A stretch of DNA of 40,445 nt from a virus. The position numbers and the translations under genes are program-made. The notes below the pieces were generated by a model that saw only the letters and a program-made list of their open reading frames with translations, was not told where the DNA came from and did no database searches. The number at the start of each line of letters is the position of its first letter. The first letter of the stretch is position 1. Location: the UHGV virus genome UHGV-1363021, one strand, 5' to 3'. Of this stretch, positions 5,937 through 32,561 are shown piece by piece.

Positions 5937-6407
5937 ATGGCTAGACCACGTAAATTGAACCTACAAAAGCAAGGACACCGCACTAAAGAAGAATTGCAAG
6001 AAGCAGAAAACGTTGAAAATGGGCTTTATGAGTTCGACCAGATTAATGCAGAAAATTTACCAGAAGATTTAACCGAAGGTGCTGCTAAAGAATGGGTGCG
6101 TGTTGTTCCTCTTTTACAACAACTACCAATTGCTGAACTAGATTATGGTTTAATCAAGAAATATTGCCAGTTAGTCGACATTAGTGACGAAGCATACCAA
6201 GAAATGCAACAAGTTGGTACATATCAACCAGATAACCATCGTAAAACAGGACCATATGTCACATTCATGGATACTACAAGAGAAATTATAAGCATATGTA
6301 GCAAATTGGGTATGACAATTGATAGTCGTATGCGTTTAGTTGTACCGGTTGAAAAGGATAAAGCAAAATCGGTTTACGATGAATTTGGTGTTGATGAAGA
6401 TGACTAA
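5937..6407 (+). CDS. terS: terminase small subunit, P27 family
   Basis: ~155 aa; N-terminal MARPRKL basic segment and overall P27-family terS features; AAGGAGGTGG RBS; overlaps terL start. Confidence 0.75.
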   Translation: MARPRKLNLQKQGHRTKEELQEAENVENGLYEFDQINAENLPEDLTEGAAKEWVRVVPLLQQLPIAELDYGLIKKYCQLVDISDEAYQEMQQVGTYQPDNHRKTGPYVTFMDTTREIISICSKLGMTIDSRMRLVVPVEKDKAKSVYDEFGVDEDD

Positions 6408-8151
6408 CGTTAAAATACCTAAAGTGTATGAAAAGCTTTTAAATATACCCAATGATTTAAGAGATGATGCATACAAATACTGTGTCATGGTTCTATCCGG
6501 TGCATACATTACATGTAAGGATACTAGACTTGCCTGTATTCGTCATTTAAAAGACATACACAAGTCAATAGATAGTCCTGAATGGAATTATATCTATAAA
6601 CCTAAACGTGCCAAAAAGGTTATTAAATTCATGGAAACACTACCTGATACAAAAGGTAAAATACACAAATTGACATTGTTTCAAAAGTTCATTGTCGCAA
6701 ATGTCAGAGGTTGGTTCACGAAAGACAGAGATATGCTGAGATTTAGAAAAGCTTTTATCTCAATGTCAAGAAAAGGAGGTAAGTCACTTTTAGTAAGTGG
6801 ACTTGTACTTTATTCTTTTTTATTCGATAGGGAACCAGCAGAAGGCAGACAGATATTTTGCGCAGCTAATGACAAGAAACAAGCAAGCGTAGTATTCAAC
6901 ATGGTAACTAAACAACTTATGCATTTAGTATCAAAAGTACCAGAATTAAAGAAAGACATTAAAAAAGTACGCGAGTTGCTTAATAACTTGCGTGATGACT
7001 CTTTCGTTATGCCATTATCACGTGATACAAGTGCAGTCGATGGTTTCGAACCATTCCTAGCTGTTATTGATGAATACCATGCAGCAAAAACAGATGAAAT
7101 GGTAGAGTTAATTCAATCTGGTCAAGGTAACTTATACCAATCACTTATATTTATCATCAGTACCGCAGGTTTTAACTTAAATTCACCGATGTTTGTAAAT
7201 GAATGGCCTTATGCTAAAGATATTTTAGCTGAAATTTATGATGATCCAGAATACTTTGCGATTATCTATGAACAAGACTCGGAAGATGAATGGCAAGATA
7301 AAACAACATGGGCCAAGTCCAATCCATTAATCAATGAATCAGACGACTTAAAAGAACAAATTGAAGAGTATTTGGAAAAACGCGTAGCAGAGGCTAATAA
7401 AAAAGGATCTATGTTCAAGGTACTTGTTAAAAACTTCAATTATTGGTTACAAGCAAGTACAGAATCTTACTTAGATTTCAATGATTGGAAAAAGAATGAA
7501 ACAGATTTTGATATACATGGGTCTAAAACTTATATCGGCCTAGACTTATCACGTGCTGATGACTTAACCGCAGTGTCGTTCGTTCATCTTAATGAAGATA
7601 ATCAAGAGTATTATGTAACCAGTCATTCGTTTGTGGCTACTAAAGGTGGACTAGATGGCAAGATTGACAGAGACTTCATCGATTATAGACAAATTGCAGA
7701 AAACGGTTATTGTACGATTACCGATTTACAAAGTGGAATTATCAATACTGATCAAGTTTTGAATTATATAGAGGATTATATCGACCAATATAAATTAGAC
7801 GTACAAGCGTTATGTTATGATCCTTACTCAATACATGGTGTTATTGCAGAAATTGAGCGTAGAGATTGGCCTTATGATTTAGTAGAAATCAGACAAGGAC
7901 CACAAACGTTATCTAATCCGATACTAGATTTTAGATTGAAAGTAATTAATGGCGACATTAAACATCATAAAAATCCGTTACTAGATATTGCGATAAAAAA
8001 TGCAGTAGCTAAAGATACTAATGACTCATTGATGATTGAAAAGAAAATGAATAGAGAAAAGATAGATCCGCTCATGTCGACTATATTCGCTTATGTGATG
8101 GCTTGTGAACATGAATGGGATAGTGAAACTTTAATGCCATTGTTCTTATAG
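6394..8151 (+). CDS. terL: terminase large subunit
   Basis: ATPase Walker A region (MSRKGGKS); C-terminal nuclease acidic residues; start 6394 or 6400 overlapping terS stop. Confidence 0.9.
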   Translation: MKMTNVKIPKVYEKLLNIPNDLRDDAYKYCVMVLSGAYITCKDTRLACIRHLKDIHKSIDSPEWNYIYKPKRAKKVIKFMETLPDTKGKIHKLTLFQKFIVANVRGWFTKDRDMLRFRKAFISMSRKGGKSLLVSGLVLYSFLFDREPAEGRQIFCAANDKKQASVVFNMVTKQLMHLVSKVPELKKDIKKVRELLNNLRDDSFVMPLSRDTSAVDGFEPFLAVIDEYHAAKTDEMVELIQSGQGNLYQSLIFIISTAGFNLNSPMFVNEWPYAKDILAEIYDDPEYFAIIYEQDSEDEWQDKTTWAKSNPLINESDDLKEQIEEYLEKRVAEANKKGSMFKVLVKNFNYWLQASTESYLDFNDWKKNETDFDIHGSKTYIGLDLSRADDLTAVSFVHLNEDNQEYYVTSHSFVATKGGLDGKIDRDFIDYRQIAENGYCTITDLQSGIINTDQVLNYIEDYIDQYKLDVQALCYDPYSIHGVIAEIERRDWPYDLVEIRQGPQTLSNPILDFRLKVINGDIKHHKNPLLDIAIKNAVAKDTNDSLMIEKKMNREKIDPLMSTIFAYVMACEHEWDSETLMPLFL

Positions 8152-8156
8152 GAGGT

Positions 8157-8357
8157 GTGATGATGAAAAAATTCTTATACGCACTTGTAGTAATACTATT
8201 ATTCGTTGTGGGCTTAATAGGTCTATTCTATGGCTTATTTATACTTTGGAAGCCGTTAGCTTATATTATTGGTGGCTTGCTGCTCATAGGTCTCTCAGGC
8301 GTTTTAAATCAAGCGTACGACAATACCTCGATAAGTCAGAAAGGGGGTGACAGTTAA
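8157..8357 (+). CDS. small two-TM membrane protein between terL and portal
   Basis: GGAGGTG RBS; two hydrophobic helices. Confidence 0.5.
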   Translation: MMMKKFLYALVVILLFVVGLIGLFYGLFILWKPLAYIIGGLLLIGLSGVLNQAYDNTSISQKGGDS

Positions 8358-14481: not shown

Positions 14482-14509
14482 TACATCTTATAAGCAAGGA
14501 GGTGGAGTG

Positions 14510-17500
14510 ATGGCAGAAAGAATTAAAGGATTGCAGATTGATCTGTCAATGCGAGATGTAAATATAAATAAGACACTAGCTGGAGTAAAAAGGGAATTTA
14601 GAGCATTAAACTCAGACCTCAAACTATCAAGTAATAACTTTAAGTATGGAGAAAAAAGTGCTGCTTCTTACAAATCTCGAATGAATGATTTAGATGGTGC
14701 CATTAAACAAGGCACAGCTAATTTAGATTCACTCAAAAATCAATACGAAGAAGTTGCACGAACACAAGGTGCTAATAGTGCTAAAGCTGTCAGATTACGT
14801 ACTGAGTACAATAATCAAGCCATAGCAGTTAATAAAATGAGAGATGAATATGGTAGATTAAACAGTTACTATAAGGAAAATTTTTCTATTGCAGGTCGAT
14901 TGAGCAATTCTTTTAAAAGCGTTGGTTCAAACATGCAGAATGTAGGTCAACAAGCACAAAATTTAGGTAGTTCTCTTACAAGTAAAATTACTAAGCCAGC
15001 GTTAGTAGCTGGCACTGCAATGGCAGGTATAACTGCTAAGCTAGGTTTTGACAGATTGGTCGGTCTTGATACTGCCAAAGCAAAACTCGAAGGTTTAGGC
15101 TATTCAACTAAAGAAGTGGGTTCGATTACTGAACAAGTAACACATGCGATTCAAGGCGGTATGACAACAATGGCCGAAGGTACCGATGTTGCAGCAGGTG
15201 CTTTAGCGGCAGGAGTAAAACAAGGTAAGGAATTAGAGAAGTATATTAAATTAGTTGGTGATGCGGCTGTCGGAAGCAATAGACCGGTATCTGAAATGGC
15301 AATGATATTTAATAGAGTTCAAGGTCAAGGAAAACTGATGACTCAAGAATTAAATATGATTGAAGAAGGTATGCCTGGATTTAGTAATGCTATGGCTAAA
15401 CATCTTGGTGTTTCCTATGACGCTTTCAGGGAGATGGTTACTAATGGAGAAGTAAGTTCTAAGGAATTTTTAGAAGTTATGGATGACTTCGCTGGTGGTA
15501 TGGCAGGAGCTTATTCTAAATCATGGAAAGGTATGGTACAAAACTCTAAAGCCTATATAGGTCAAATTGGAGAAGCTTTCTTAAGCAGTACCTTTGAACA
15601 AGCCAAAGGTGGTTTGCATGAATTTGAATCTATGTTGAAATCACCAGGAGCCAAAGAATGGGCAGCTAAAACTGGCGAACAACTTGGTAATACATTAGCT
15701 TCGATTGGCAATGGCATTAAAGGCCTAATAGATTGGTGGCAAAATTTAGACGGTTCCACTCAAAAAACGCTAGGTGGAATTGTTAAATGGTTAGGCATCA
15801 CTTTAGTTACTATGGGACCTGTTTTAACAATATTCGGTAAGTTTGTAAGAACCATTGGTGGTATGTTTAGTGGTTTATCGACACTTATAACATTCATGAT
15901 AAGACATAATGCTGCAGCCAAAATGAGTGCAGTTGGCCAAAAGGTATGGAATGGTGTTACTGCTACTGCTCGTGGTATCGCAAATGGCTATAGATTAGCA
16001 ATAGCAGCTTTAAGTACATCTCAAACTATACAAGCTTTGAAAACTAAAATTGCTGCTGCTGCAACAACGGCTTGGACTGCAGTTACTAAAGGTGCAGCTT
16101 TAGCAACTAAAGGCTTAGGATTAGCTATAAGATTTATGACTGGGCCTGTCGGTATAGTTATTACAGCCATCGGATTATTAGTAGCTGGACTTATTCATTT
16201 ATGGAAAACAAATAGCTCGTTTAGAAATAGTGTGATTACTGCTTGGAATGCTATTAAAAATGCAGCGGTAGCCATATTTGGATTTATCAAACCTTATATT
16301 ATTAATATTTGGAACGCAATTAAAAACTCTACAATTGCCATTTGGAACGCGATTAAAAAAAGTGCTGTAATAATATGGAACGCTATTAAATTTGCTGTTC
16401 AACATCCTATTCAAGCATTAAAAAATGTCTTATCAGCTTTATGGAATGGCATGAAAAATGCTGCTATTAAAATATGGACGTTGCTTAAAAACGGTGTTTT
16501 AGCAATTATTAAAGCATATGTTGCACAAGTAAGATTTAATATCAACCTTATTAAACGCATTGTAGTTACGATATTTAATGCTATTAAAAGCTTTTCTATT
16601 AAAGTGTGGATTGCACTAAAAAATGGCGTGTTAGGAATTGTTCGAGCTTTGCGCAAAGGTGTTCTTTCTGTGTTTAATGCATTAAAAAAAGGTGTTTCTG
16701 CAATATTTAATGCTATAAAGAATGCCACAGTTAGAATATGGACTGCTATGAAAAATACTGTCATTAATCGAGCGAAAGCATTATGGTCTGGAGTTAGAAA
16801 TACATGGAATGCACTCAAAAAAGGTACTATTGGCGTATTCAAATCAGTCGGTAGTTTTATGAGCAATAAATGGAACAGTATTAAAAATAGTACAGTGAAT
16901 AAAGCGAAAGCTCTATGGTCAGGTGTTAAAAGTGTATGGGGATCGCTCAAAAAAGGTATTCATAACACCATGACGGCTGTTGGTGGTTTCATGAGCAAAA
17001 AGTGGAATGGCATCAAAAATACTACTGTATCTATTGTAAATAGCATGAAATCGAAAGTTATGGGCACCATGAATAAAATGAGAGACGGTATCAAAACAGT
17101 TACCGGTAAAATTGGGAATCTTTTTGGCGGAATGGTTAAAGGCGTTAAAAAAGGATTAAATAAATTGATTAGTGGTGTTAACTGGGTTGCTGATAAATTA
17201 GGTATGGATAAATTACCGTCTATTAAATTAAGTACGGGGACAAACGCATCTAAAAAATATGTGAGTCATGGGAAAATTAACCGAGACACTTTTGCGACAG
17301 TAGGAGACAAAGGTAGAGGTAATGGCCCTAGTGGATTTAGGCATGAAATGATTGAGTATCCTAATGGTAAAACAACTATTACACCTAATAGAGATACAAC
17401 CACATTTTTACCTAAAGGTTCTAAAGTTTATAATGGCACACAAACTCATGCGATGCTATCCCAAATGCCTCGTTTTAGTATAGGTTCAGCAATCAAAGAA

Positions 17501-18988
17501 AAAGCTGAATATATGCTTGAAAATGGTAAAAAAGCTGTAAAAAGCACAATTGGAAAAGGCAAAGACTTAGGAGGAAATGCAGTAGACCAAGTTAAGAAAG
17601 TTGGTTCTGAGGTTGCTGTTAAAGCTAAAAAAGTTGGAAGTGCAGTTATATCAGGTATAGGAGATGTATTTGATTATATAGGACACCCTGGTAAGCTAGT
17701 TAACAAAATTTTTGACAAAGTTGGGTTTAACTTTAATTTTCTTAAGGATGCACCTTTACCTTTTGATTTAATGCAAGGAGCCTACAAGAAATTAAAGAGT
17801 GGCGTTAAATCATTATTTGACGAATGGCTTAATGATGCCGGTGGCGGCGATGGATCGTCCTTTACTAAGTTTCCAATTACTACAGGGTATTATCCTAATG
17901 GTGGCGCTCCTGGCTATAGTTTTGGTGGAGGTCATCATTACGGTATTGACTTTGGTGCCCCATACGGTACAACAATCAATGCTACGAATAGCGGACAGTT
18001 AGGTGAATTGCATAACTTTGGCGGAGGGCTTGTTGCAAGACTTTTAACAGGTCAATTCACGTTATTCTTTATGCACTTATCTAAAATACTGAAACACGGT
18101 AAGGTACAGGCAGGAGAACCTATAGCTAAAACAGGTAATAGTGGTAACTGGACTACTGGTCCTCACTTACATTTCCAAGTCGAAAAAGGTAGACATAATG
18201 ATATTACTAACCAGAATACTGTAAACCCACTCAAGTGGCTCAAAGGTCACGGCGGTGGAAAAGTTGGTGGTAGTGGTTCTGCAAACGCACGTAGAGCAAT
18301 TCAAAGAGCACAATCTATTTTAGGTGGACGTTATAAATCGTCTTATATTACCGAACAAATGATGAGAGTTGCCAAGCGTGAATCTAATTTCCAGGCGGGA
18401 GCAGTTAATAACTGGGATAGCAATGCTAGAGCGGGAATACCTTCTAAAGGTATGTTCCAAATGATTGAACCATCTTTTAGAGCGTTCGCTAAACCAGGAC
18501 ATGGGAACATTTTGAACCCTGTAGACGAAGCTATATCGGCTATGAGATACATCGTAGCAAAATATGGTTGGGGTGGTTTCAAACGTGCTGGAGATTATGC
18601 TTATGCTACAGGCGGCCTTATTAACACTGCTGGATTATATAATTTGGCAGAAGATGGATACCCTGAGATAGTGATACCTACAGATCCAAGCAGACAATCA
18701 GATGCGATGAAATTGTTACATCTTGCTGCGAGTAAAATTAGTGGAAATAACAGAAATAAACGACCTAACCAATTACGTACCCCTAGTGTTACTAGTAATA
18801 CAGTTGATAACGCAGAATTACTACTACAAATGATAGAAAATCAACAGAAACAAATAAACGTGTTAATGGAAATAGCACGAAGTAATAAAACTATTGAAAA
18901 ACAACCGAAAGGTTTTTCAGAACGCGATGTAAGTCAGGCACAAGGTTCAAGGTTAAGACTCGCTGCTTATAGCCAGGGAGGTTTATAA
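14510..18988 (+). CDS. tail tape measure protein with C-terminal M23 peptidase and lytic transglycosylase (SLT) domains
   Basis: 1.49-kb ORF after G/GT; central tandem ~11-aa WNAIKN repeats; M23 motifs HHYGID and GPHLHF; SLT motifs AKRES...GMFQMIEPSF. Confidence 0.9.
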   Translation: MAERIKGLQIDLSMRDVNINKTLAGVKREFRALNSDLKLSSNNFKYGEKSAASYKSRMNDLDGAIKQGTANLDSLKNQYEEVARTQGANSAKAVRLRTEYNNQAIAVNKMRDEYGRLNSYYKENFSIAGRLSNSFKSVGSNMQNVGQQAQNLGSSLTSKITKPALVAGTAMAGITAKLGFDRLVGLDTAKAKLEGLGYSTKEVGSITEQVTHAIQGGMTTMAEGTDVAAGALAAGVKQGKELEKYIKLVGDAAVGSNRPVSEMAMIFNRVQGQGKLMTQELNMIEEGMPGFSNAMAKHLGVSYDAFREMVTNGEVSSKEFLEVMDDFAGGMAGAYSKSWKGMVQNSKAYIGQIGEAFLSSTFEQAKGGLHEFESMLKSPGAKEWAAKTGEQLGNTLASIGNGIKGLIDWWQNLDGSTQKTLGGIVKWLGITLVTMGPVLTIFGKFVRTIGGMFSGLSTLITFMIRHNAAAKMSAVGQKVWNGVTATARGIANGYRLAIAALSTSQTIQALKTKIAAAATTAWTAVTKGAALATKGLGLAIRFMTGPVGIVITAIGLLVAGLIHLWKTNSSFRNSVITAWNAIKNAAVAIFGFIKPYIINIWNAIKNSTIAIWNAIKKSAVIIWNAIKFAVQHPIQALKNVLSALWNGMKNAAIKIWTLLKNGVLAIIKAYVAQVRFNINLIKRIVVTIFNAIKSFSIKVWIALKNGVLGIVRALRKGVLSVFNALKKGVSAIFNAIKNATVRIWTAMKNTVINRAKALWSGVRNTWNALKKGTIGVFKSVGSFMSNKWNSIKNSTVNKAKALWSGVKSVWGSLKKGIHNTMTAVGGFMSKKWNGIKNTTVSIVNSMKSKVMGTMNKMRDGIKTVTGKIGNLFGGMVKGVKKGLNKLISGVNWVADKLGMDKLPSIKLSTGTNASKKYVSHGKINRDTFATVGDKGRGNGPSGFRHEMIEYPNGKTTITPNRDTTTFLPKGSKVYNGTQTHAMLSQMPRFSIGSAIKEKAEYMLENGKKAVKSTIGKGKDLGGNAVDQVKKVGSEVAVKAKKVGSAVISGIGDVFDYIGHPGKLVNKIFDKVGFNFNFLKDAPLPFDLMQGAYKKLKSGVKSLFDEWLNDAGGGDGSSFTKFPITTGYYPNGGAPGYSFGGGHHYGIDFGAPYGTTINATNSGQLGELHNFGGGLVARLLTGQFTLFFMHLSKILKHGKVQAGEPIAKTGNSGNWTTGPHLHFQVEKGRHNDITNQNTVNPLKWLKGHGGGKVGGSGSANARRAIQRAQSILGGRYKSSYITEQMMRVAKRESNFQAGAVNNWDSNARAGIPSKGMFQMIEPSFRAFAKPGHGNILNPVDEAISAMRYIVAKYGWGGFKRAGDYAYATGGLINTAGLYNLAEDGYPEIVIPTDPSRQSDAMKLLHLAASKISGNNRNKRPNQLRTPSVTSNTVDNAELLLQMIENQQKQINVLMEIARSNKTIEKQPKGFSERDVSQAQGSRLRLAAYSQGGL
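16190..17110 (+). repeat. tandem degenerate ~33-nt (11-aa) repeats within tape measure (WNAIKN/WSGVKN units)
   Basis: Recurrent WNAIKN..., WNALKK..., WSGV.. peptide periodicity visible in translation. Confidence 0.6.
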
Positions 18989-21573: not shown

Positions 21574-23436
21574 ATGTTATTAACTTTAGACTTTCCTATT
21601 CAAATAGGACACACATTTAGAACCAAGATGATAAATAATTTTAGAACAATACTTAATTATTATAATGAATTAGATCATCAGCATCGCGCACACACAGAAA
21701 CTAAGCTTCATGCACATCAAGCCATGCAGGTTGATTATAGAAATACAAACGTTTCTGCATTTTTAGATTATCTTAACGGTAATATTAATGGGCTTGTTTT
21801 AGGAGCAAATGGAGACGGTATAGCTGAAACAAAACAAGCCAGAGTATCAATAGATGGTACCGTACATCCCTTGTTGCAAGAAAGACTGCTTCATGACTTT
21901 TTAGGAATTAACAGAAAATTAGATAAAGAAATACATTCTAATGGTGCAGTTGACTTTATTTGGAATCCTCCATATATATCAGGAAATAGATTAGGAAAAA
22001 ATGGGACACCAAATAATTGGGAACCAGAAGCCCATATTGAGGCATTTTTAAACCCTTTAGTTGATAATCAATACGTTACAAAAGAAGTTATAGGAGAAGA
22101 TACATCAGGAAAATATAATGTGTACAAATTTACGTTTGAACCACAAAATTACAATAAAACGCTACTTATTACTTCATGTATACACGGTAATGAAACTACT
22201 GGATTTTTTGATATGTGCCATATACTCAACCTATTGGTCAATCAGTGGGAAAAGTATCCTCAACTAACTTACTTAAGAAAAAATGTACGTTTAATTTATG
22301 TTCCTATGGTTAACCCGTGGGGATTCGCAAATCAAAAAAGAGAGAATGTGAACAATGTAGATTTAAACAGAAATTTTGATTATAACTGGAAGGCAGGTAA
22401 AGGGACAGATCCTGATAAATCTAACTTCAAAGGTAAAAGTCCTTTTTCTGAAAAAGAATCACAAAATATGCGTAGCTTAGTTCAACGTATAGATAATTTA
22501 ACTGCTCACTTAGATTTGCATGATATTATTTCAGTAAATAATGATTACTGCTTATTTTATCCGCGTTGGGCCAATCAAAAAAACAATAATATGACTCATC
22601 TCATTAACAATTTAAAAAGTAACGGAGACTTCGTTGTTTGGGGTTCCAGTACATTATCATCTTTTAGTAATTGGGTAGGAATCCGAAATAAAACAACGTC
22701 ATATCTTTCAGAAATAAATGAAAAACGTGTCGGTGAAAAGAAAAGTCCCGAAGAAATGAGACGCTCAGTACGCTGGGTTGGTAATGTAATTTTCAGAATG
22801 GCACAATTTGAATCTTATCAAAATGGTCAAACATCATTAGATCCTTTCATTAAAGTGATGGTATATGATGATAGATTTAACAATAAAACGTCTGAAGTCA
22901 TTACCCTACGTGCAGAAAGGAATGAATGGCAACGTATAATGATGAGTCAGCAGCGTTTCAAAGTTTTAGCGAATGGATTTGTAGAGCTCTATGGATATGT
23001 GACTATAAACGTTGATAGAGATGTCACAGTCGGGATTAGTCCTAATATTGTTCAGAATTATCATCCATTCTTTGGGTTTAATAAAAGTAGAAAACGTAAT
23101 TTATTTTCGATTGAACATAGACTCAACAAAGGAAATATAACTTTCCCTATTTACGCTGCTGCTGGAGTTCAAATGTCGACGATTACTGAACCAGGTACAA
23201 AACGTACTGATACAGTAATGCCGGTACTAGATGTTAAGAAAAAAGGTGCTGGTATTGTAACAATCAAACAAATTAAATTATTTGCGAAGTTCACTCCTAC
23301 GCATTCTGCTAATTCCATTCAGATATTAAAATCTGGAGAATACGGTAATCTTAAAGAAGATACGTTCACACAAATTTACCCTAATACTATATACGATGAT
23401 GATTTAAAAAATGTTATAAATGGGGAGGAAAAATAA
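21574..23436 (+). CDS. tail fiber / receptor-binding-like protein with predicted zinc carboxypeptidase-like (AstE-AspA/M14-type HGNE) domain
   Basis: AAAGGAGG RBS; motif LLITSCIHGNETTGF matches the HGNE zinc-ligand signature of the M14/AstE-AspA superfamily; 620 aa in the baseplate region. Confidence 0.55.
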   Translation: MLLTLDFPIQIGHTFRTKMINNFRTILNYYNELDHQHRAHTETKLHAHQAMQVDYRNTNVSAFLDYLNGNINGLVLGANGDGIAETKQARVSIDGTVHPLLQERLLHDFLGINRKLDKEIHSNGAVDFIWNPPYISGNRLGKNGTPNNWEPEAHIEAFLNPLVDNQYVTKEVIGEDTSGKYNVYKFTFEPQNYNKTLLITSCIHGNETTGFFDMCHILNLLVNQWEKYPQLTYLRKNVRLIYVPMVNPWGFANQKRENVNNVDLNRNFDYNWKAGKGTDPDKSNFKGKSPFSEKESQNMRSLVQRIDNLTAHLDLHDIISVNNDYCLFYPRWANQKNNNMTHLINNLKSNGDFVVWGSSTLSSFSNWVGIRNKTTSYLSEINEKRVGEKKSPEEMRRSVRWVGNVIFRMAQFESYQNGQTSLDPFIKVMVYDDRFNNKTSEVITLRAERNEWQRIMMSQQRFKVLANGFVELYGYVTINVDRDVTVGISPNIVQNYHPFFGFNKSRKRNLFSIEHRLNKGNITFPIYAAAGVQMSTITEPGTKRTDTVMPVLDVKKKGAGIVTIKQIKLFAKFTPTHSANSIQILKSGEYGNLKEDTFTQIYPNTIYDDDLKNVINGEEK

Positions 23437-24650
23437 TGGAATTAAAAAAGATTGGTAAAATTGAAGTTAAAAATGAACCTTACTTAAAACCGATATCTGA
23501 TGAAGGTATCGGTTTTTATAACTTAGATGATAAAACTGCAGTTTTAAGGTTTTATGTGACTAAAAACAAAAAGCCTTTATTAATTAGTGAAGAAAACACT
23601 GAAACGTACATATATCTTGAATCCTCTAACGGTTCTAATCAAATAGTTGAATATGTACGTTTTATTGACCCTTTAAATGGTGTTATTGAAGTAACTATAC
23701 CTATTGAATTCTTACAAGCTTCAACGAATACAATTGTTATAGGTCAAATATATATTTCGATTAACCATCGAAATCAGGTAGATAGCGATAAATCATCAAC
23801 TGCAGTTTTAACTGAATTTGAATTCGAAGTGGGTGACGCAATAATAAATAAAATTAATGGTGCAACTAAAATTAAATATATCCGTATGTTTGATGAATTA
23901 AAAAGACAAATTAATGCACGAGCCACTGAAATACAAGAACAATTAGATAATTTAGAAGATTGCGTTGTTAAAGTGAAAGATGCAAGTGATGAAGGAATTA
24001 CAAAGATTCAGATTGAAACAAAAAAAGGATTGAACAAACTTAATCAACAACATAGTAAAAGTGTAAAAGACGTCGAGGAATCTCTTAACGCGGCTAAAAA
24101 TACAATTCAAAATCTTTATGAAGAATATGACAACGAAATTGACACAAAAGGAAGTCAATATTTGAAAGATTTAAGAATCGAAGTTAGGAATATTGAAAAT
24201 ATATTAAGTCAAGAGGGATACGTCACAATTGATGAACATCGTAAAATCATTACTGAAATACAAGAAAAGTTACCTGAATCTTCAGATTGGATTGAATATG
24301 ATTTGATTAATGGAGCTATAAAAAATAGGCATTATAAAGCTGAAGGACAAAATGGTTTTAATTGCGCTTATAAAATCATTCAACATCAAGACTACAAGGA
24401 AGTGATTTTAAGAATTAACGCTGACAACTTTAAAAGTGGAACTGTTATAGCGAAGTTACCGAGTGAATTAATTACAAGTACGCAAACTGCGTTCCTAAGA
24501 GCGGTGCCTGTTAAAGCTGGTGGTGCTCAATTAACTATTGAACCTAATGGAGATGTTAAAGTTTATATTTCTCAGAGCGATCAGTGGTCAGTAAGTCGTG
24601 AAGCTTATATTTACGGAGAAATTAGAATGATAGATAAAGGAGGTGAATAA
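23436..24650 (+). CDS. tail fiber/baseplate protein with central coiled coil
   Basis: GGGGAGG RBS; 404 aa; coiled-coil middle segment. Confidence 0.45.
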   Translation: MELKKIGKIEVKNEPYLKPISDEGIGFYNLDDKTAVLRFYVTKNKKPLLISEENTETYIYLESSNGSNQIVEYVRFIDPLNGVIEVTIPIEFLQASTNTIVIGQIYISINHRNQVDSDKSSTAVLTEFEFEVGDAIINKINGATKIKYIRMFDELKRQINARATEIQEQLDNLEDCVVKVKDASDEGITKIQIETKKGLNKLNQQHSKSVKDVEESLNAAKNTIQNLYEEYDNEIDTKGSQYLKDLRIEVRNIENILSQEGYVTIDEHRKIITEIQEKLPESSDWIEYDLINGAIKNRHYKAEGQNGFNCAYKIIQHQDYKEVILRINADNFKSGTVIAKLPSELITSTQTAFLRAVPVKAGGAQLTIEPNGDVKVYISQSDQWSVSREAYIYGEIRMIDKGGE

Positions 24651-24654
24651 AGTG

Positions 24655-25278
24655 ATGGATACTTATAAATCTATGACTGAACTTGTGAGAAATGAAAAAG
24701 ATTGGATGATTGAGACGCAAGATAGAAATAGTAAATCACTTATAACTGCTATACACGGAGGTGGTATAGAGTGCGGCACTTCTGAATTAGCGTTATTGGT
24801 TGCAGAATTATCGAATTCAAACTATTTCACTTTTAAAGGTTTAAAACCGAAAAACAATAGAACTCTACACGTCACTTCAACAAATTATGATAACCCCAAT
24901 TTACTATATTGGAATCAATTTATGAATGTAACGATAGCCATACATGGTTATTCAAGCAGTGAAGCGAATAGTTATATTGGTGGACTAGATGAAAGACTTA
25001 TATCTCTTATTACTCACAATTTAAAAGTTTCAGGTTTTAATGTGGAAGCTGCTTCTGACAGAATTGCGGGCAGAGAAATTAATAATATAACTAATAAAAA
25101 TGCCTATGGCATGGGTGTACAGATTGAAATATCAACTCAACAAAGAAAAGAATTTTTTAGTCGAAACGATTTTAGTCAAAAGAATAGAGAAAATACACAT
25201 AATTGGACAGAAGATATGTATTACTATGCTAATGCTATTTGTGCTGCACTTAATGATAGAAAGTGGGTAGAAACATGA
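24655..25278 (+). CDS. poly-gamma-glutamate hydrolase PghP-like (DUF867) zinc hydrolase
   Basis: Motifs AIHGGGIECGTSE, HVTSTNYDNP, IAIHGY, GVQIEIS, QRKEFF closely recall PghP of Bacillus phage phiNIT1 (zinc ligands H-E-H); GGAGGTGA RBS 7 nt upstream. Confidence 0.65.
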   Translation: MDTYKSMTELVRNEKDWMIETQDRNSKSLITAIHGGGIECGTSELALLVAELSNSNYFTFKGLKPKNNRTLHVTSTNYDNPNLLYWNQFMNVTIAIHGYSSSEANSYIGGLDERLISLITHNLKVSGFNVEAASDRIAGREINNITNKNAYGMGVQIEISTQQRKEFFSRNDFSQKNRENTHNWTEDMYYYANAICAALNDRKWVET

Positions 25279-25580
25279 AGAAAACACACAGTATGACTGA
25301 AATGGAATATATTAATGTTATTTCTTTATTATTTATTGGGACAATAGGTATGGCTCGTGGGTCTTTTTTTATATTTGCTTCTGAAACTCAAGTCGATAAA
25401 AGTCCATTGTATAGCAGTATTAATGAAATAATACCCTTAAGTATTTGGGGTATTCCATTCTTTATAGGTGGTTTATGCTTAGCTATTGCAGCTATGGCTT
25501 TACCTTATAGAAATATTAACAAAGTCTATAGTATCACTCTTATTTTAGGAGGGATTATTGTTCTGTGTTTTTCTTTGTAA
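25263..25580 (+). CDS. 3-TM membrane protein
   Basis: Hydrophobic helices; ORF overlapping upstream stop. Confidence 0.45.
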   Translation: MGRNMKKTHSMTEMEYINVISLLFIGTIGMARGSFFIFASETQVDKSPLYSSINEIIPLSIWGIPFFIGGLCLAIAAMALPYRNINKVYSITLILGGIIVLCFSL

Positions 25581-25685
25581 TCACGTTAGCTGGTATTAGT
25601 GATTCTTTAAATTGGATGTCACCTCTCATTTACTTTTTAACTACTTTAACGTGTGGTGGTTATGCTTACTTTGGAGTGTTGCATT

Positions 25686-26093
25686 ATGCCAAACAATGAA
25701 TTACCCCAAAGTTATTATGACGATAGGGATGCTATTCATAAAAGAATAAGAGAAGTCGATGAAAAACATACGAATAATTATAACAATTTAAGTGTGCTAT
25801 TAGCAGAATTTAAACCTACACTTAATCAAATGGTTGAAGCAACTAAAGAGATGAGTGCTGAACAGAAAAAGACAAACCAACAAATCATAGAACAAGGCCA
25901 TCGATTGTCTGTCGTCGAAAAGGATGCTCAAATGTTTAGGAAACATTTAAGTCAAGAAGAACAAGAAGCAAAAGAGAAAGGTAAAGAAAATAAAGAGTTT
26001 ATTTTAAAAGCTACCGGTATATTTGTTGGTGGAGGCGGTGTGGCTTGGCTTATCCACCCATTGTTCGACTTTTTAAAAAATGTGATTAATTAA
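25686..26093 (+). CDS. coiled-coil protein with C-terminal TM anchor
   Basis: ATG at MPNNELPQ with GGAG SD; C-terminal GIFVGGGGVAWLIHPLF helix. Confidence 0.45.
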   Translation: MPNNELPQSYYDDRDAIHKRIREVDEKHTNNYNNLSVLLAEFKPTLNQMVEATKEMSAEQKKTNQQIIEQGHRLSVVEKDAQMFRKHLSQEEQEAKEKGKENKEFILKATGIFVGGGGVAWLIHPLFDFLKNVIN

Positions 26094-26250
26094 AGTGGTA
26101 TTTAAAGAAAAAATCATAGTAAGGCATATATAGTTTTAAAATCTTTCAACTTTGTAAGTTTAAGATGTCATTTTGTAAGAATAGATAAAAGTAATTTTCA
26201 TTAGAATCTTCTACAATTAAATTGTAATTAAATTGAAGGAGAGTTCATTA

Positions 26251-26649
26251 ATGAGAGATTTAAAAATTTTATTAATTCCTATAATAATCATTATATTATT
26301 AGTAATGGGATTACTTTTCGGATTGAGAATTTACGGTGATTATCATCCAAGTAATGAAAATGTAAAAAGTTTGAATATGAAGAACCCTCTTGAGCCGACA
26401 AAAGAATATTATGTAAAAACTACTAAACCAGTAAAAGAAAAGCCTAAAGAAGAGGAAGATCAAACTCATGAATACGAAACAACAGGTTATGATAAAAAAG
26501 GTAACAGTAAAAAAATCAAATATGTAGGAATGAAAAGACTAAAACTCAATCACTATTTAAAAATTAAACAAAAATTAGATACAGTTAAAAGTTATGAAGA
26601 AGTTAAAAAAGATGACATTCCTAAAGAAGCACGTAAACATTTAAATTAA
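26251..26649 (+). CDS. lysine-rich protein with N-terminal TM anchor
   Basis: AAGGAG RBS before MRDLKILL; N-terminal hydrophobic helix. Confidence 0.45.
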   Translation: MRDLKILLIPIIIIILLVMGLLFGLRIYGDYHPSNENVKSLNMKNPLEPTKEYYVKTTKPVKEKPKEEEDQTHEYETTGYDKKGNSKKIKYVGMKRLKLNHYLKIKQKLDTVKSYEEVKKDDIPKEARKHLN

Positions 26650-26712
26650 TATCTTAGAGTCTGGGACATGAATCCTAGGCTCTTTTATTTTACTATAAAG
26701 GAGATGTATTTT

Positions 26713-27123
26713 TTGAAAATTAACTGGATTAATCGTTTTAAAAACGGAACAACACTCACAGCTTTAGTTGGTGCAGTATTATTATTTTCTAAACAAGTAA
26801 CCGAAGCATTTGGTATAGATATATCAAGTGAACTTGAAACAATCAGTAGTATTCTGGGAAGTATTATTACAATACTTGTAGCTTTAGGTATTGTTACAAA
26901 CCCTAACACTAAAGGCGTTGCTGATGCTGGTATTGACCTAGAACTAAATAAACCGCGTAATCAAAAAACGCACCCTGTACAGTTTAAAAGTGAGTCAGGG
27001 GCAGTGAAACCTGAAGTTTTCGACACTAACGAATCGTTTACTGATGATTCTGATGAAGAAGAATTCGAATTTAATAATGATGGAGGAGGAGCTCCAGATG
27101 AAAACGCAATCTCAAATCAATAA
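26713..27123 (+). CDS. holin (phage_holin_1 / SPP1-like family)
   Basis: KINWINRFKNGTTLTALVGAVLLF... strongly resembles staphylococcal phage holins; TTG start 9 nt after AAGGAG; immediately upstream of the endolysin. Confidence 0.8.
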   Translation: MKINWINRFKNGTTLTALVGAVLLFSKQVTEAFGIDISSELETISSILGSIITILVALGIVTNPNTKGVADAGIDLELNKPRNQKTHPVQFKSESGAVKPEVFDTNESFTDDSDEEEFEFNNDGGGAPDENAISNQ

Positions 27124-28561
27124 ACGTTTACGAGATTATAAAAACGGTGTAGTAGATAGTCCATACAGAGTTAAACGTTGGACGAGTTATGACGCTTCCT
27201 TTGGTGCTATGGAACCAGGTTGCATTGATAAAGACCGTGCTTATCACGCACAGTGTATGGACTTGGCGATAGATTATGTAATGTGGTTAACTGATAATCA
27301 AACAGAGATGTGGGGCGATGCTAAAAGCTCTATAATAAACAAATTCCCTAAAGGGTGGAAGATTGTAGAAAACAAACCGTCAACGATACCCAAAAAAGGT
27401 TGGATAGCTGTATATACAGCTGGAACCTATTCACGTTATGGGCATATAGGTATAGTATATGATGGTGGTAATACGAACTCCTTCCAAATACTTGAACAAA
27501 ATTGGAATGGCTGGGCTAATAAAAAACCTAGCTTACGATGGGATAATTATTATGGTTTAACACACTTTATAGTTCCACCTATAGCGAAAGAAATAGAAGA
27601 ACCTAAAAAAGATGCAAAATCAGCTCCTAAACAGTCAGTTAAGGAAAATAGTAGCATCAAAGTCAACACTAATCATATAAAAAGTTGGACTATGACTAAG
27701 AGAGGTCGTAAACCTAAAGGTGTAGTCATTCATAACGATGCCGGCACAATGAATTCAAAACAATACTACAACAATCTAGTAAACGCTGATTACAATAGAT
27801 TAGCAAGAGGCATAGCTCACGCATACGCTGATAGAAACGGTATTTGGGAATCTATATCAGAAGATAGAATTGCTTGGCATGTATCAGATGGTGTTCAACC
27901 AGGTTCAGGTAATTTTGAATTCTACGGAATCGAAGTTAACCAATCGATGTATGCCGGAGATAAAGATTTTCTTAAAAATGAACAAGTTGCGCTTAAATTC
28001 GCAGCGCATAAACTTATAAAGTGGGGGTTACCAGCTAACAGAAATACTGTTCGTTTACACAATGAATTTAGTTATACAGCTTGTCCTCATCGTTCTGCTA
28101 AATTACATGCTGGCATTGATCCAACAAAACAAGCATGGACTAAGGCAACACAGCTTGAGTTAAAAGATTACTTTATTAAGCAAATTAGGGCATATATGAA
28201 AGGTAGTACACCTAAAGTTACTACAGTTAAAAACAAACCTGGCAGTGCATCCACTCCAGCTAATAGACGAGATATGAACGGTTGGAAAATCAATAAGTAT
28301 GGAACTTATTATAAATCAGAAATAGCTCACTTTACGCCAAACACTCCTATTAAAACTCATTATGTTGGACCGTTTAGAAGTTGTCCTGTGAGCGGTGTAT
28401 TACAGCCAGGTCAAACAATAAAATATGACACTGTATGTAAACAAGACGGTCACGTTTGGGTGAGTTATACAGCTTATAATGGTAATGACGTTTGGTTAGC
28501 TGTGAGAACATGGAATAAAACAAATGATAGTTTAGGTAAATTGTGGGGTACAATCAATTAA
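27098..28561 (+). CDS. endolysin: CHAP + amidase_2 (N-acetylmuramoyl-L-alanine amidase) + SH3b
   Basis: CHAP Cys/His (AYHAQCMDL...RYGHIGIV); amidase_2/PGRP segment (VIHNDAGT...AWHVSDG); C-terminal SH3_5-like; GGAGGAGGAG RBS. Confidence 0.9.
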   Translation: MKTQSQINKRLRDYKNGVVDSPYRVKRWTSYDASFGAMEPGCIDKDRAYHAQCMDLAIDYVMWLTDNQTEMWGDAKSSIINKFPKGWKIVENKPSTIPKKGWIAVYTAGTYSRYGHIGIVYDGGNTNSFQILEQNWNGWANKKPSLRWDNYYGLTHFIVPPIAKEIEEPKKDAKSAPKQSVKENSSIKVNTNHIKSWTMTKRGRKPKGVVIHNDAGTMNSKQYYNNLVNADYNRLARGIAHAYADRNGIWESISEDRIAWHVSDGVQPGSGNFEFYGIEVNQSMYAGDKDFLKNEQVALKFAAHKLIKWGLPANRNTVRLHNEFSYTACPHRSAKLHAGIDPTKQAWTKATQLELKDYFIKQIRAYMKGSTPKVTTVKNKPGSASTPANRRDMNGWKINKYGTYYKSEIAHFTPNTPIKTHYVGPFRSCPVSGVLQPGQTIKYDTVCKQDGHVWVSYTAYNGNDVWLAVRTWNKTNDSLGKLWGTIN

Positions 28562-31403: not shown

Positions 31404-32561
31404 TTAGTTAGATTTTAAAAATTCTTTATCAATAATTTCATTAGTAATTCTTTCCATATGTTCTTTAGTCATATCCTTGTTTTCACCACTTTGCATACCA
31501 TGTTCATTTGCTATTTTATCGTTATATTTGTCTAGTGGGTAAACAGTAAAATCATATCTAGAATCTTTATTGCCTGGTATTCTTTCTCTATAGAAATTTA
31601 CTAGGGATTTCCAATGAACATTTTTAATTACAATTTTTTGCCCTTTTTTTGTTATATCAAAATTTATGCTACCACAAAGATTATTACTTTCATTACCAGT
31701 ATTTTGACCATTTAAAAAATTACCTAATGAGTAAACTACAAGTGTTTTGTGATTTTTTATGCCTTTTACCCATTTTACCGGTTGAATTACATGGGGATGC
31801 ATACCTATTACGGCATCGACATTTGAATTTGCGAATACTTTAGCATATCTTTCTTGCTTTTTATTTGGATAATGATGACTCTCTTGTCCCCAATGAGTTG
31901 AAACGATAACAGCATCACTATTTTTTTTAGCGTATTTGACGTCTCGCTTTATTTTATTTTCATTTAAATAATTAATTTGATATTTATTTTCTGGTTTAAG
32001 TCCATTAGTACCAAATGTATAATTAAGTATTGCTATCTTTATTCCATTTTTATTTATAATTTGAAGTTTCTCATTATCTTTTTTAGATTTGTATACACCA
32101 GTGAACATAACTCCTTTTTCTTTATACTTTTCCCATAGATTAACTCTATGATTAACGCCATGTGTACCTTTGTCGAGAGCATGATTATTTGATCCGTTAA
32201 TTAAATTAAATCCTGATTCAACCAAATATTTCGACAAATCGCTAGGAGTATTAAACCTTTTAAAACCTGAATAAGGTATATCATCCCCTCCCATTGGGGA
32301 CTCTTGGTTGATGTAAGCAATATCAAATTTCTTTATATAAGGTTTAATGTTTTTATACATTGGTGAAAAATCATAGTCATTATGACGAGTTTTTGCATCG
32401 CTATATACAACTGGATGAATTAAATTATCTCCAACTGCAACAAAAGAAACTTTTTCATGATTAAAGTGGGTGTCAATTTCAGCAAATATTAAAGTTATAA
32501 CTGCTAATAGGCTAAAAAAAATTATAGCTATTATTTTTTTCAATTTACATACCTTCTTCAT
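31404..32561 (-). CDS. CapA/PGA_cap-family membrane-anchored metallophosphatase-like protein, lysogeny-region moron
   Basis: N-terminal TM anchor; metallophosphatase-like motifs (VAVGDNLIHP, INGSNNHALDKG, GMHPHV) and overall CapA/PgsA (PF09587-type) architecture; own terminator. Confidence 0.65.
   Translation of the reverse strand: MKKVCKLKKIIAIIFFSLLAVITLIFAEIDTHFNHEKVSFVAVGDNLIHPVVYSDAKTRHNDYDFSPMYKNIKPYIKKFDIAYINQESPMGGDDIPYSGFKRFNTPSDLSKYLVESGFNLINGSNNHALDKGTHGVNHRVNLWEKYKEKGVMFTGVYKSKKDNEKLQIINKNGIKIAILNYTFGTNGLKPENKYQINYLNENKIKRDVKYAKKNSDAVIVSTHWGQESHHYPNKKQERYAKVFANSNVDAVIGMHPHVIQPVKWVKGIKNHKTLVVYSLGNFLNGQNTGNESNNLCGSINFDITKKGQKIVIKNVHWKSLVNFYRERIPGNKDSRYDFTVYPLDKYNDKIANEHGMQSGENKDMTKEHMERITNEIIDKEFLKSN

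Follow-up and report, generated by a model that had tools for sequence, protein, structure and literature searches.

Why would a temperate phage of staphylococci carry a gene for a poly-gamma-glutamate (PGA) hydrolase among its late genes, and where would such an enzyme act? This question is raised by the virus genome UHGV-1363021, a stretch of 40,445 nucleotides that is referred to below as the window, and in particular by its pghP-like gene at 24655-25278. A reading made from the DNA letters alone, hereafter the sequence-only reading, had likened the product of this gene to PghP, an enzyme by which Bacillus phages degrade PGA. Our analysis revealed that the protein is a member of the PghP family with the PghP fold, and that it probably acts as a soluble hydrolase freed when the host cell lyses. 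The gene and its translation signal are located as follows:

24655..25278, + strand: pghP-like gene; 207-amino-acid single-domain zinc poly-gamma-glutamate hydrolase (MEROPS M86, Pfam PF05908), assigned by profile, structure and alignment
24637..24645, + strand: Shine-Dalgarno sequence AAGGAGGTG, read from the sequence; it ends 9 nucleotides 5' of the pghP ATG and overlaps the end of the BppU/FibL gene

Family, fold and active site of the PghP-like protein

The list of open reading frames and the translation indicated a gene of 207 codons for a 23.6-kDa protein, running from an ATG at 24655 to a TGA stop at 25276-25278. The open reading frame finder had also listed a GTG at 24643. Since this codon sits in the Shine-Dalgarno sequence itself, we assigned the start to the ATG, which is also the one used in RefSeq. 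The stop of the upstream BppU/FibL gene (24648-24650) is separated from this ATG by a gap of 4 nucleotides, and the pghP stop overlaps the start of the next gene as ATGA. All motif blocks quoted in the sequence-only reading were found in the product (IHGGGIECGT, LHVTSTNYDNP, AIHGY, GVQIEIS and QQRKEFF) and aligned with their counterparts in PghP.

Comparison of the protein with Pfam gave PF05908 (Gamma_PGA_hydro) as the only match, with an E-value of 4.6e-58 and a score of 196.3 bits (the curated cut-off of this family is 22 bits). Residues 4-193 corresponded to positions 1-190 of the 191 positions of the profile, so that the proposed relation to PF05908/DUF867 was borne out over the full length. 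A similarly strong match (E = 2.8e-58) was obtained with PHROG 4175, 'poly-gamma-glutamate hydrolase'. The sequence matches in the PDB were soluble PGA hydrolases only, i.e., PghP of phage phiNIT1 (3a9l, E = 2.9e-34), the PGA hydrolase of phage PM1 (21dc, 2.1e-32) and YndL/PghL of Bacillus subtilis (5onl/5onj, 7e-28). NCBIfam returned nothing for the 207-amino-acid protein, and neither search indicated membership in the peptidoglycan gamma-D-glutamyl peptidases (e.g., M14 MpaA or ENP1).

Residue roles were taken from the mutagenesis of PghP and from the complex of PghL with hexaglutamate (PMC6506827). In the alignment, the predicted zinc ligands H34, E39 and H97 correspond to H40, E45 and H103 of PghP, while H72, T74, S75, E158 and R164 correspond to its catalytic and substrate-contact residues H78, T80, S81, E165 and R171. 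Replacement of H40, E45, H78, T80, H103 or E165 by alanine impaired or nearly abolished the activity of PghP, whereas S81 and R171 are contact residues known from crystal structures, and the equivalent of R171 anchors the substrate in PghL (PMC6506827). All eight positions were invariant across an alignment of 42 homologs with identities down to 34%.

An AlphaFold2 model built on the same 42-sequence alignment had a mean predicted local distance difference test (pLDDT) of 96.4 and a predicted template modeling (TM) score of 0.93. The zinc site was assessed by Foldseek superposition together with the residue alignment. The model superposed on 3a9l with a TM score of 0.95 and a root-mean-square deviation of 1.1 A, and showed the H-E-H triad in a carboxypeptidase-like open alpha/beta fold. 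The top Foldseek matches were 3a9l, 21dc and 5onj, and the first match outside the PghP family fell to a TM score of about 0.5. Family profile, match to PghP and eight conserved key residues therefore upheld the identity that the sequence-only reading had proposed.

This identification is correct but not novel, and in this respect the sequence-only reading had overrated the gene. NCBI lists the exact 207-amino-acid sequence under the name 'MULTISPECIES: poly-gamma-glutamate hydrolase family protein' for 291 contigs, some of which are complete S. epidermidis chromosomes. The gene is annotated as a poly-gamma-glutamate hydrolase in RefSeq (NC_028821 and NC_019915) and in the S-CoN_Ph GenBank records, and the StB20 record of 2012 had already flagged PF05908/DUF867. 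Phage PghP-like genes were reported in 2015 by Mamberti et al. to be confined to Bacillus and Staphylococcus phages (PMC4497714). Our tblastn search found the family in 226 phage records, namely 149 of Bacillus, 75 of Staphylococcus, one of Listeria and one given as 'Phage' only. The pghP-like gene is not taken up in either of the two papers on StB20-like phages. One of the public records, S-CoN_Ph23 (OR354846.1; pghP at 301-922 of the locus), has an extra A in a homopolymer at about codon 179, by which the C-terminal helix is truncated and the annotated coding sequence shortened to 182 amino acids. A frameshift in a homopolymer run may be either a real truncation or a sequencing error, and it was not used as evidence of dispensability.

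The window itself represents a StB20-like temperate siphovirus with genes for terminase, portal, capsid, tape measure, integrase and an S24/HTH repressor. The 7.1 kb around pghP shared 96.9% DNA identity with S-CoN_Ph18 to S-CoN_Ph24 and about 95% with phages StB20-like and StB20. The hosts of these nearest phages (95-97% DNA identity) are S. epidermidis for StB20-like, S. capitis for StB20 and other coagulase-negative staphylococci. The capBCAD genes were present in all S. epidermidis strains tested and absent from the S. aureus strains tested (PMC7022728), and a cap operon is encoded by S. capitis AYP1020 and S. epidermidis RP62A (PMC7022728, PMC4585213). These data agree with the coagulase-negative, PGA-producing host that had been suggested.

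Site of action and substrate of the enzyme

We consider it probable that pghP encodes a soluble zinc-dependent endo-gamma-glutamyl hydrolase that is expressed late, released at lysis and clears PGA for the progeny virions. We infer the activity, the role of PGA as the physiological substrate in staphylococci, the release at lysis and the benefit to adsorption from close homology. According to this proposal, pghP would be transcribed together with the late tail genes, and the enzyme would remain in the cytoplasm, since it has neither a signal peptide nor a membrane anchor. Lysis by holin and endolysin would then free it alongside the progeny phage. Once outside, it would cut poly-gamma-DL-glutamate on neighboring S. 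epidermidis or S. capitis cells and on the debris of the lysed cell, and removal of PGA would open the virions' way to their receptor in the cell wall.

Several observations are consistent with this sequence of events. The PF05908 domain takes up residues 4-193 of 207 and leaves no space for an adaptor, and neither Pfam nor the model indicated an extra tail-anchoring domain, the catalytic domain filling the protein. Chromosomal staphylococcal paralogs (248 amino acids) have an N-terminal membrane anchor and a Bacillus YndL-like protein has a signal peptide, whereas the window protein has neither. PghP, the founding member of the family, does not form part of the virion, and the burst sets it free when infection ends (PMC6966330). 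The gene is tightly packed into the string of late genes, and a search for promoters at pghP found promoter-like sites at a frequency no higher than expected by chance, and a promoter of its own was therefore dismissed. Furthermore, a survey of 80 IMG/VR loci with a gene for the M14 protein of the receptor-binding protein (RBP) position, described below, revealed pghP in all 12 complete StB20-like loci and in three of four intermediate ones, while only 8 of the 52 complete StB12/27-like loci with the M14-RBP baseplate had it. The remaining 44 loci lacked the gene, as did phage StB27, and in StB12 the pghP-like gene lies directly before the holin gene and not beside BppU. Since pghP is lost or moved while the baseplate genes stay unchanged, a structural role in the baseplate is unlikely.

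Some points weigh against this proposal. The polymer of S. epidermidis is a mixture of D- and L-glutamate. PghL cleaves only stretches of L-glutamate (PMC6506827), so the efficiency of the phage enzyme on native PGA is uncertain. In StB20 and in S. saprophyticus prophages, tail genes flank pghP on both sides, and a gene between tail genes might be in the place expected of a structural protein. In the literature searched, we found no biochemical or genetic study of any staphylococcal phage PghP homolog, and nothing showing that PGA blocks the adsorption of staphylococcal phages.

The position of the gene bears on these alternatives, and the genes around it are as follows:

14507-18988, + strand: tape measure gene, with a Peptidase_M23 domain at residues 1143-1235 of the product
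21574..23436, + strand: 620-amino-acid tail protein in the RBP slot; RBP stem and M14 zinc carboxypeptidase domain
23436..24650, + strand: BppU_N/FibL-type baseplate fiber gene, homologous to 80alpha gp62 'Fiber Lower'
25275..25699, + strand: small membrane protein gene, phrog_2968; 141 amino acids in StB20-like gp05
25686..26093, + strand: phrog_2990 gene of unknown function, the last in the uninterrupted string of late genes that runs from the tail genes through pghP
26233-26649, + strand: gene of a small secreted protein (YxeA/DUF1093 family), 3' of the tail genes and 5' of the holin gene; a terminator-like hairpin lies at 26656-26683
26668..28561, + strand: lysis cassette of holin (Phage_holin_1) and endolysin (CHAP, Amidase_2 and SH3_5)

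The local order is thus tape measure (M23), Dit, Tal, 620-amino-acid protein, BppU_N protein, pghP, two small genes, YxeA-family gene, holin and endolysin. Because the stem of the RBP-slot protein resembles those of 80alpha gp61 and phi11 Gp45, and the BppU_N protein resembles FibL gp62, pghP is placed, by homology, directly 3' of 80alpha-type baseplate genes. The sequence-only reading had described the gene as lying between tail fiber genes and the lysis cassette, which holds: the RBP-position protein and the BppU/FibL homolog are encoded upstream, and holin and endolysin downstream, past the two small genes and the YxeA-family gene.

An alternative is that the hydrolase is docked noncovalently on the BppU/FibL fiber or on the M14-RBP, as a baseplate-bound depolymerase that clears PGA locally at adsorption. 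Besides the tight packing of pghP directly 3' of the baseplate genes, and the two-sided tail neighborhood noted above, such docking would fit the conserved order of M14-RBP, BppU and PghP in S. auricularis and S. saprophyticus prophages, in which the hydrolases share 55-63% identity, and the fact that the close homologs (at least 46% identity) all come from M14-RBP phages wherever the upstream sequence sufficed. However, the protein is a bare catalytic domain without an adaptor, and while the solved 80alpha baseplate was matched through its RBP (gp61) and FibL (gp62) chains only, the hydrolase matched nothing but soluble PGA hydrolases. The absence of the gene from 44 of 52 StB12/27-like phages whose baseplate genes are the same, its place beside the holin gene in StB12-like phages and the absence of PghP from virions (PMC6966330) point in the same direction, as do the GenBank notes of StB20, where orf55, orf56 and orf60 are each called 'tail protein' and orf57 'hypothetical'. 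We therefore regard a baseplate-bound enzyme as unlikely in the window phage. Other members of the family may differ in this respect: the PHROG 4175 profile has 1045 positions with the hydrolase at its C-terminal end, and Priestia proteins of 353 amino acids carry a C-terminal extension of 150 amino acids. The enzyme therefore exists elsewhere in fused forms, which may be attached to the tail.

Nearness to the lysis cassette and to wall-degrading tail proteins could also suggest an extra lysin that cuts a gamma-glutamyl bond outside PGA, e.g., that between D-isoglutamine and L-lysine in the staphylococcal stem peptide. Enzymes of the carboxypeptidase fold such as MpaA do cleave gamma-D-Glu bonds of murein, and the neighboring 620-amino-acid M14 protein gave a weak NCBIfam match to MpaA, but that similarity belongs to the neighbor and not to the pghP product. 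In the PghL-hexaglutamate complex, successive glutamates are bound through their alpha-carboxylates, and the side chains responsible are all invariant here. In staphylococcal peptidoglycan, the alpha-carboxyl of D-Glu is amidated to give isoglutamine, and this recognition handle is therefore missing. The phage, moreover, already has four peptidoglycan-directed activities (M23, Prophage_tail endopeptidase, CHAP and Amidase_2), and PF05908 genes stand beside capBCA operons in other Bacilli: in Trichococcus palustris and in a Carnobacteriaceae metagenome-assembled genome, both Lactobacillales, a complete capB-capC-capA operon adjoins a PF05908 hydrolase gene (loci L056 9965-14372 and L079 9884-13370, respectively). 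A peptidoglycan substrate is thus very unlikely. About as improbable, or slightly more so, is a service mainly to the lysogen and not to the infecting phage, in which the prophage would express the enzyme for the remodeling or recycling of host PGA, in the manner of the B. subtilis enzymes PghL, PghZ, PghB and PghC, which derive from prophages. Active pghP-like genes persist in B. subtilis prophages and prophage remnants (PMC4497714), the exact window protein is found within prophages on many S. epidermidis chromosomes, and the same phage has a CapA-family gene in its lysogeny module. Against this, pghP is enclosed by the other genes of the late operon, with no gap of promoter size and a promoter signal not above chance, and the enzyme has no export signal, so that a living lysogen would be unable to deliver it to extracellular PGA.

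The sequence-only reading had left two choices side by side, a virion-associated or a lysis-released enzyme and PGA or a new substrate. The evidence favors release at lysis, given the missing anchor domain and signal peptide, the dispensability of the gene in relatives that share its baseplate and its place beside the holin gene in StB12-like phages, and disfavors a virion-bound protein. It likewise favors PGA, since the contact side chains of the PghL-hexaglutamate complex are all conserved, over a new substrate.

M14 and CapA-family proteins of the same phage

The 620-amino-acid protein in the RBP slot combines a stem (residues 21-121) homologous to the RBP stems of 80alpha gp61 (6v8i) and phi11 Gp45 (5efv) with an M14 domain (Pfam E = 4e-22). 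The core of the modeled domain had a pLDDT above 90, and its best structural matches were carboxypeptidases T, B and A, with TM scores of 0.65-0.74. The catalytic set is intact (H204 and E207 of the HxxE motif, H316, N265/R266, R256 and E380) and conserved in the staphylococcal relatives and in B. megaterium podophages, so that the protein is apparently an active carboxypeptidase, as judged from its residues. Full-length relatives occur in the S. hominis phages StB12 and StB27 and in the B. megaterium podophages Page, Pavlov and Palmer.

A tblastn survey of 160 loci with PghP homologs indicated an association of the two enzymes. All homologs with at least 46% identity and enough upstream sequence were from phages with the M14 protein, and none of those with 45% identity or less were. 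A distance tree placed most of the M14-associated homologs in one clade, and the association is therefore largely explicable by shared ancestry. A strict coupling of M14-RBP and PghP was rejected in the reverse direction, since pghP is present in just 8 of the 52 StB12/27-like M14-RBP loci.

A third gene of interest is located in the lysogeny module:

31404..32561, - strand: CapA-family gene (Pfam PGA_cap, CapA/PgsA), located between those of the cI-type repressor and the integrase; the product of 385 amino acids has a membrane anchor at its N-terminus

Its product matched PGA_cap with an E-value of 2.5e-62 (Pfam). The gene was found in 9 of 12 StB20-like isolate records, named 'CapA family protein' in RefSeq and 'hypothetical protein' in the S-CoN records, and it occurs with two unrelated integrases. 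There is no terminator between cI and PGA_cap, and terminator-like hairpins follow the PGA_cap stop. We regard it as a candidate lysogenic-conversion gene, tied to PGA by its family name and genomic association. A copy with 74% identity occupies the same slot in an S. saprophyticus prophage, whose 43,102-bp contig also has the M14-RBP, BppU and PghP block. The closest chromosomal relatives examined were three, with 49-58% identity: those of S. haemolyticus and S. lugdunensis and a multispecies Staphylococcus protein. None of them has its gene in a capBCAD operon, and the idea that the phage gene is a captured operon capA is thus unsupported. In S. lugdunensis (CP084480.1, locus 6001-8157), the orphan PGA_cap gene is directly followed by that of a membrane-anchored 280-amino-acid PF05908 hydrolase, and a polysaccharide capsule locus lies just 3' of the pair. 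Among solved structures, weak similarity to PGA_cap was seen in MslH only, a metal-dependent peptide epimerase which its depositors named a PGA synthesis protein; this is at most a hint that members of the PGA_cap family may act on peptide stereocenters.

It is tempting to join the three proteins into a PGA toolkit of StB20-like phages, in which the M14-RBP would bind or trim gamma-glutamyl chains, PghP would strip PGA from neighboring cells and the CapA-family protein would alter the PGA of the lysogen. If so, the latter, expressed with the repressor, might shift the amount, length or D/L composition of PGA, e.g., excluding related phages with stereospecific PghP-type enzymes. This idea is supported by the following observations: (i) all three genes recur on the diverged S. 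saprophyticus phage contig, and phages with the M14-RBP are the only ones in which the closest PghP clade occurs, and (ii) PGA_cap and PF05908 genes are adjacent in S. lugdunensis and, together with capBC, in the two Lactobacillales genomes. On the other hand, shared ancestry could account for most of the co-occurrence, M14-RBP phages are usually without PghP, and the three chromosomal relatives of PGA_cap examined lie outside cap operons. We hold the toolkit to be unlikely.

In S. epidermidis, PGA shields the cells from antimicrobial peptides, phagocytosis and salt. The remaining value of pghP is practical and ecological, and the literature searched contains no characterized PGA hydrolase of a staphylococcal phage. 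An enzyme adapted to the PGA of staphylococci might be of use as a reagent against virulence or biofilms, and also for asking whether phage infection on skin is limited by PGA. The M14-RBP and the CapA-family gene are the more interesting leads, though an unproven one in each case, and raise the question of whether temperate phages of the skin not only breach the PGA layer but also remodel it.

The remaining genes of the region showed some further features. Relative to NC_028821, the phrog_2968 gene has a deletion of one nucleotide in a T-rich stretch near 25557, which yields the open reading frames 25275-25580 and 25565-25699; the split gene is either a pseudogene or the result of a sequencing error. 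In StB20, a collagen-like tail fiber gene occupies the slot of the YxeA-family gene, and this slot is therefore a swap point for accessory genes. Two terminator-like hairpins (28768 and 28856) lie 3' of the lysis cassette. The peptidoglycan-directed set of the phage comprises M23 of the tape measure protein, the Prophage_tail endopeptidase of Tal and CHAP/Amidase_2 of the endolysin. None of the PADLOC defense models produced a meaningful result with PghP, PGA_cap, YxeA, phrog_2990 or the M14-RBP. Two 41,200-bp contigs of the NPDC collection, labeled Nocardioides sp. (NZ_JBEORH010000021.1) and Micromonospora sp. (NZ_JBITIH010000038.1), are StB20-like phage sequences 97.8% identical to the window and are almost certainly contamination. 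Contamination of this kind also seems to explain the cluster members labeled Campylobacter coli, Helicobacter pylori and Mycobacteroides abscessus.

Comparison with known PGA-degrading systems

Among enzymes that act on the same polymer, PgdS (NlpC/P60) and CapD (gamma-glutamyltranspeptidase) differ in fold and chemistry, the former being a cysteine peptidase and the latter an Ntn-hydrolase (PMC6506827), and the window protein has no similarity to either. PghL (YndL) and PghZ (YoqZ) of B. subtilis prophages (5onj/5onl) resemble it in family, fold (E = 7e-28), prophage location and the residues that contact hexaglutamate, but the identity is about 34% and the Bacillus YndL-like homolog has a signal peptide. 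The hydrolases of large staphylococcal myoviruses (Sepunavirus phiIPLA-C1C, 80B and phages of S. xylosus and S. carnosus) share the family, the host genus and 43-48% identity over the full length; in contrast to the window protein, they are encoded by lytic phages of 140 kb, away from an M14-RBP baseplate, and they form separate branches in the distance tree.

PghP of phiNIT1 (M86.001, 3a9l) is alike in being a single-domain protein of about 207 amino acids with the same fold, H-E-H zinc site and H/T/S/E/R residues, and both proteins are phage-encoded among late genes and devoid of a signal peptide. The two share, however, only 36-38% identity, and their carriers are a large lytic myovirus of B. 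subtilis and a 40-kb temperate siphovirus of Staphylococcus, respectively. Furthermore, the window gene sits at the junction of baseplate and lysis genes, and the activity known for PghP is a predicted one here. In StB20 (orf57), StB20-like (gp06) and S-CoN_Ph18-25, finally, the same gene is found in the same place, with 95-99% protein identity. With respect to this group there is essentially no difference, and the window represents a further member of it, with 96.9% DNA identity to the best record.

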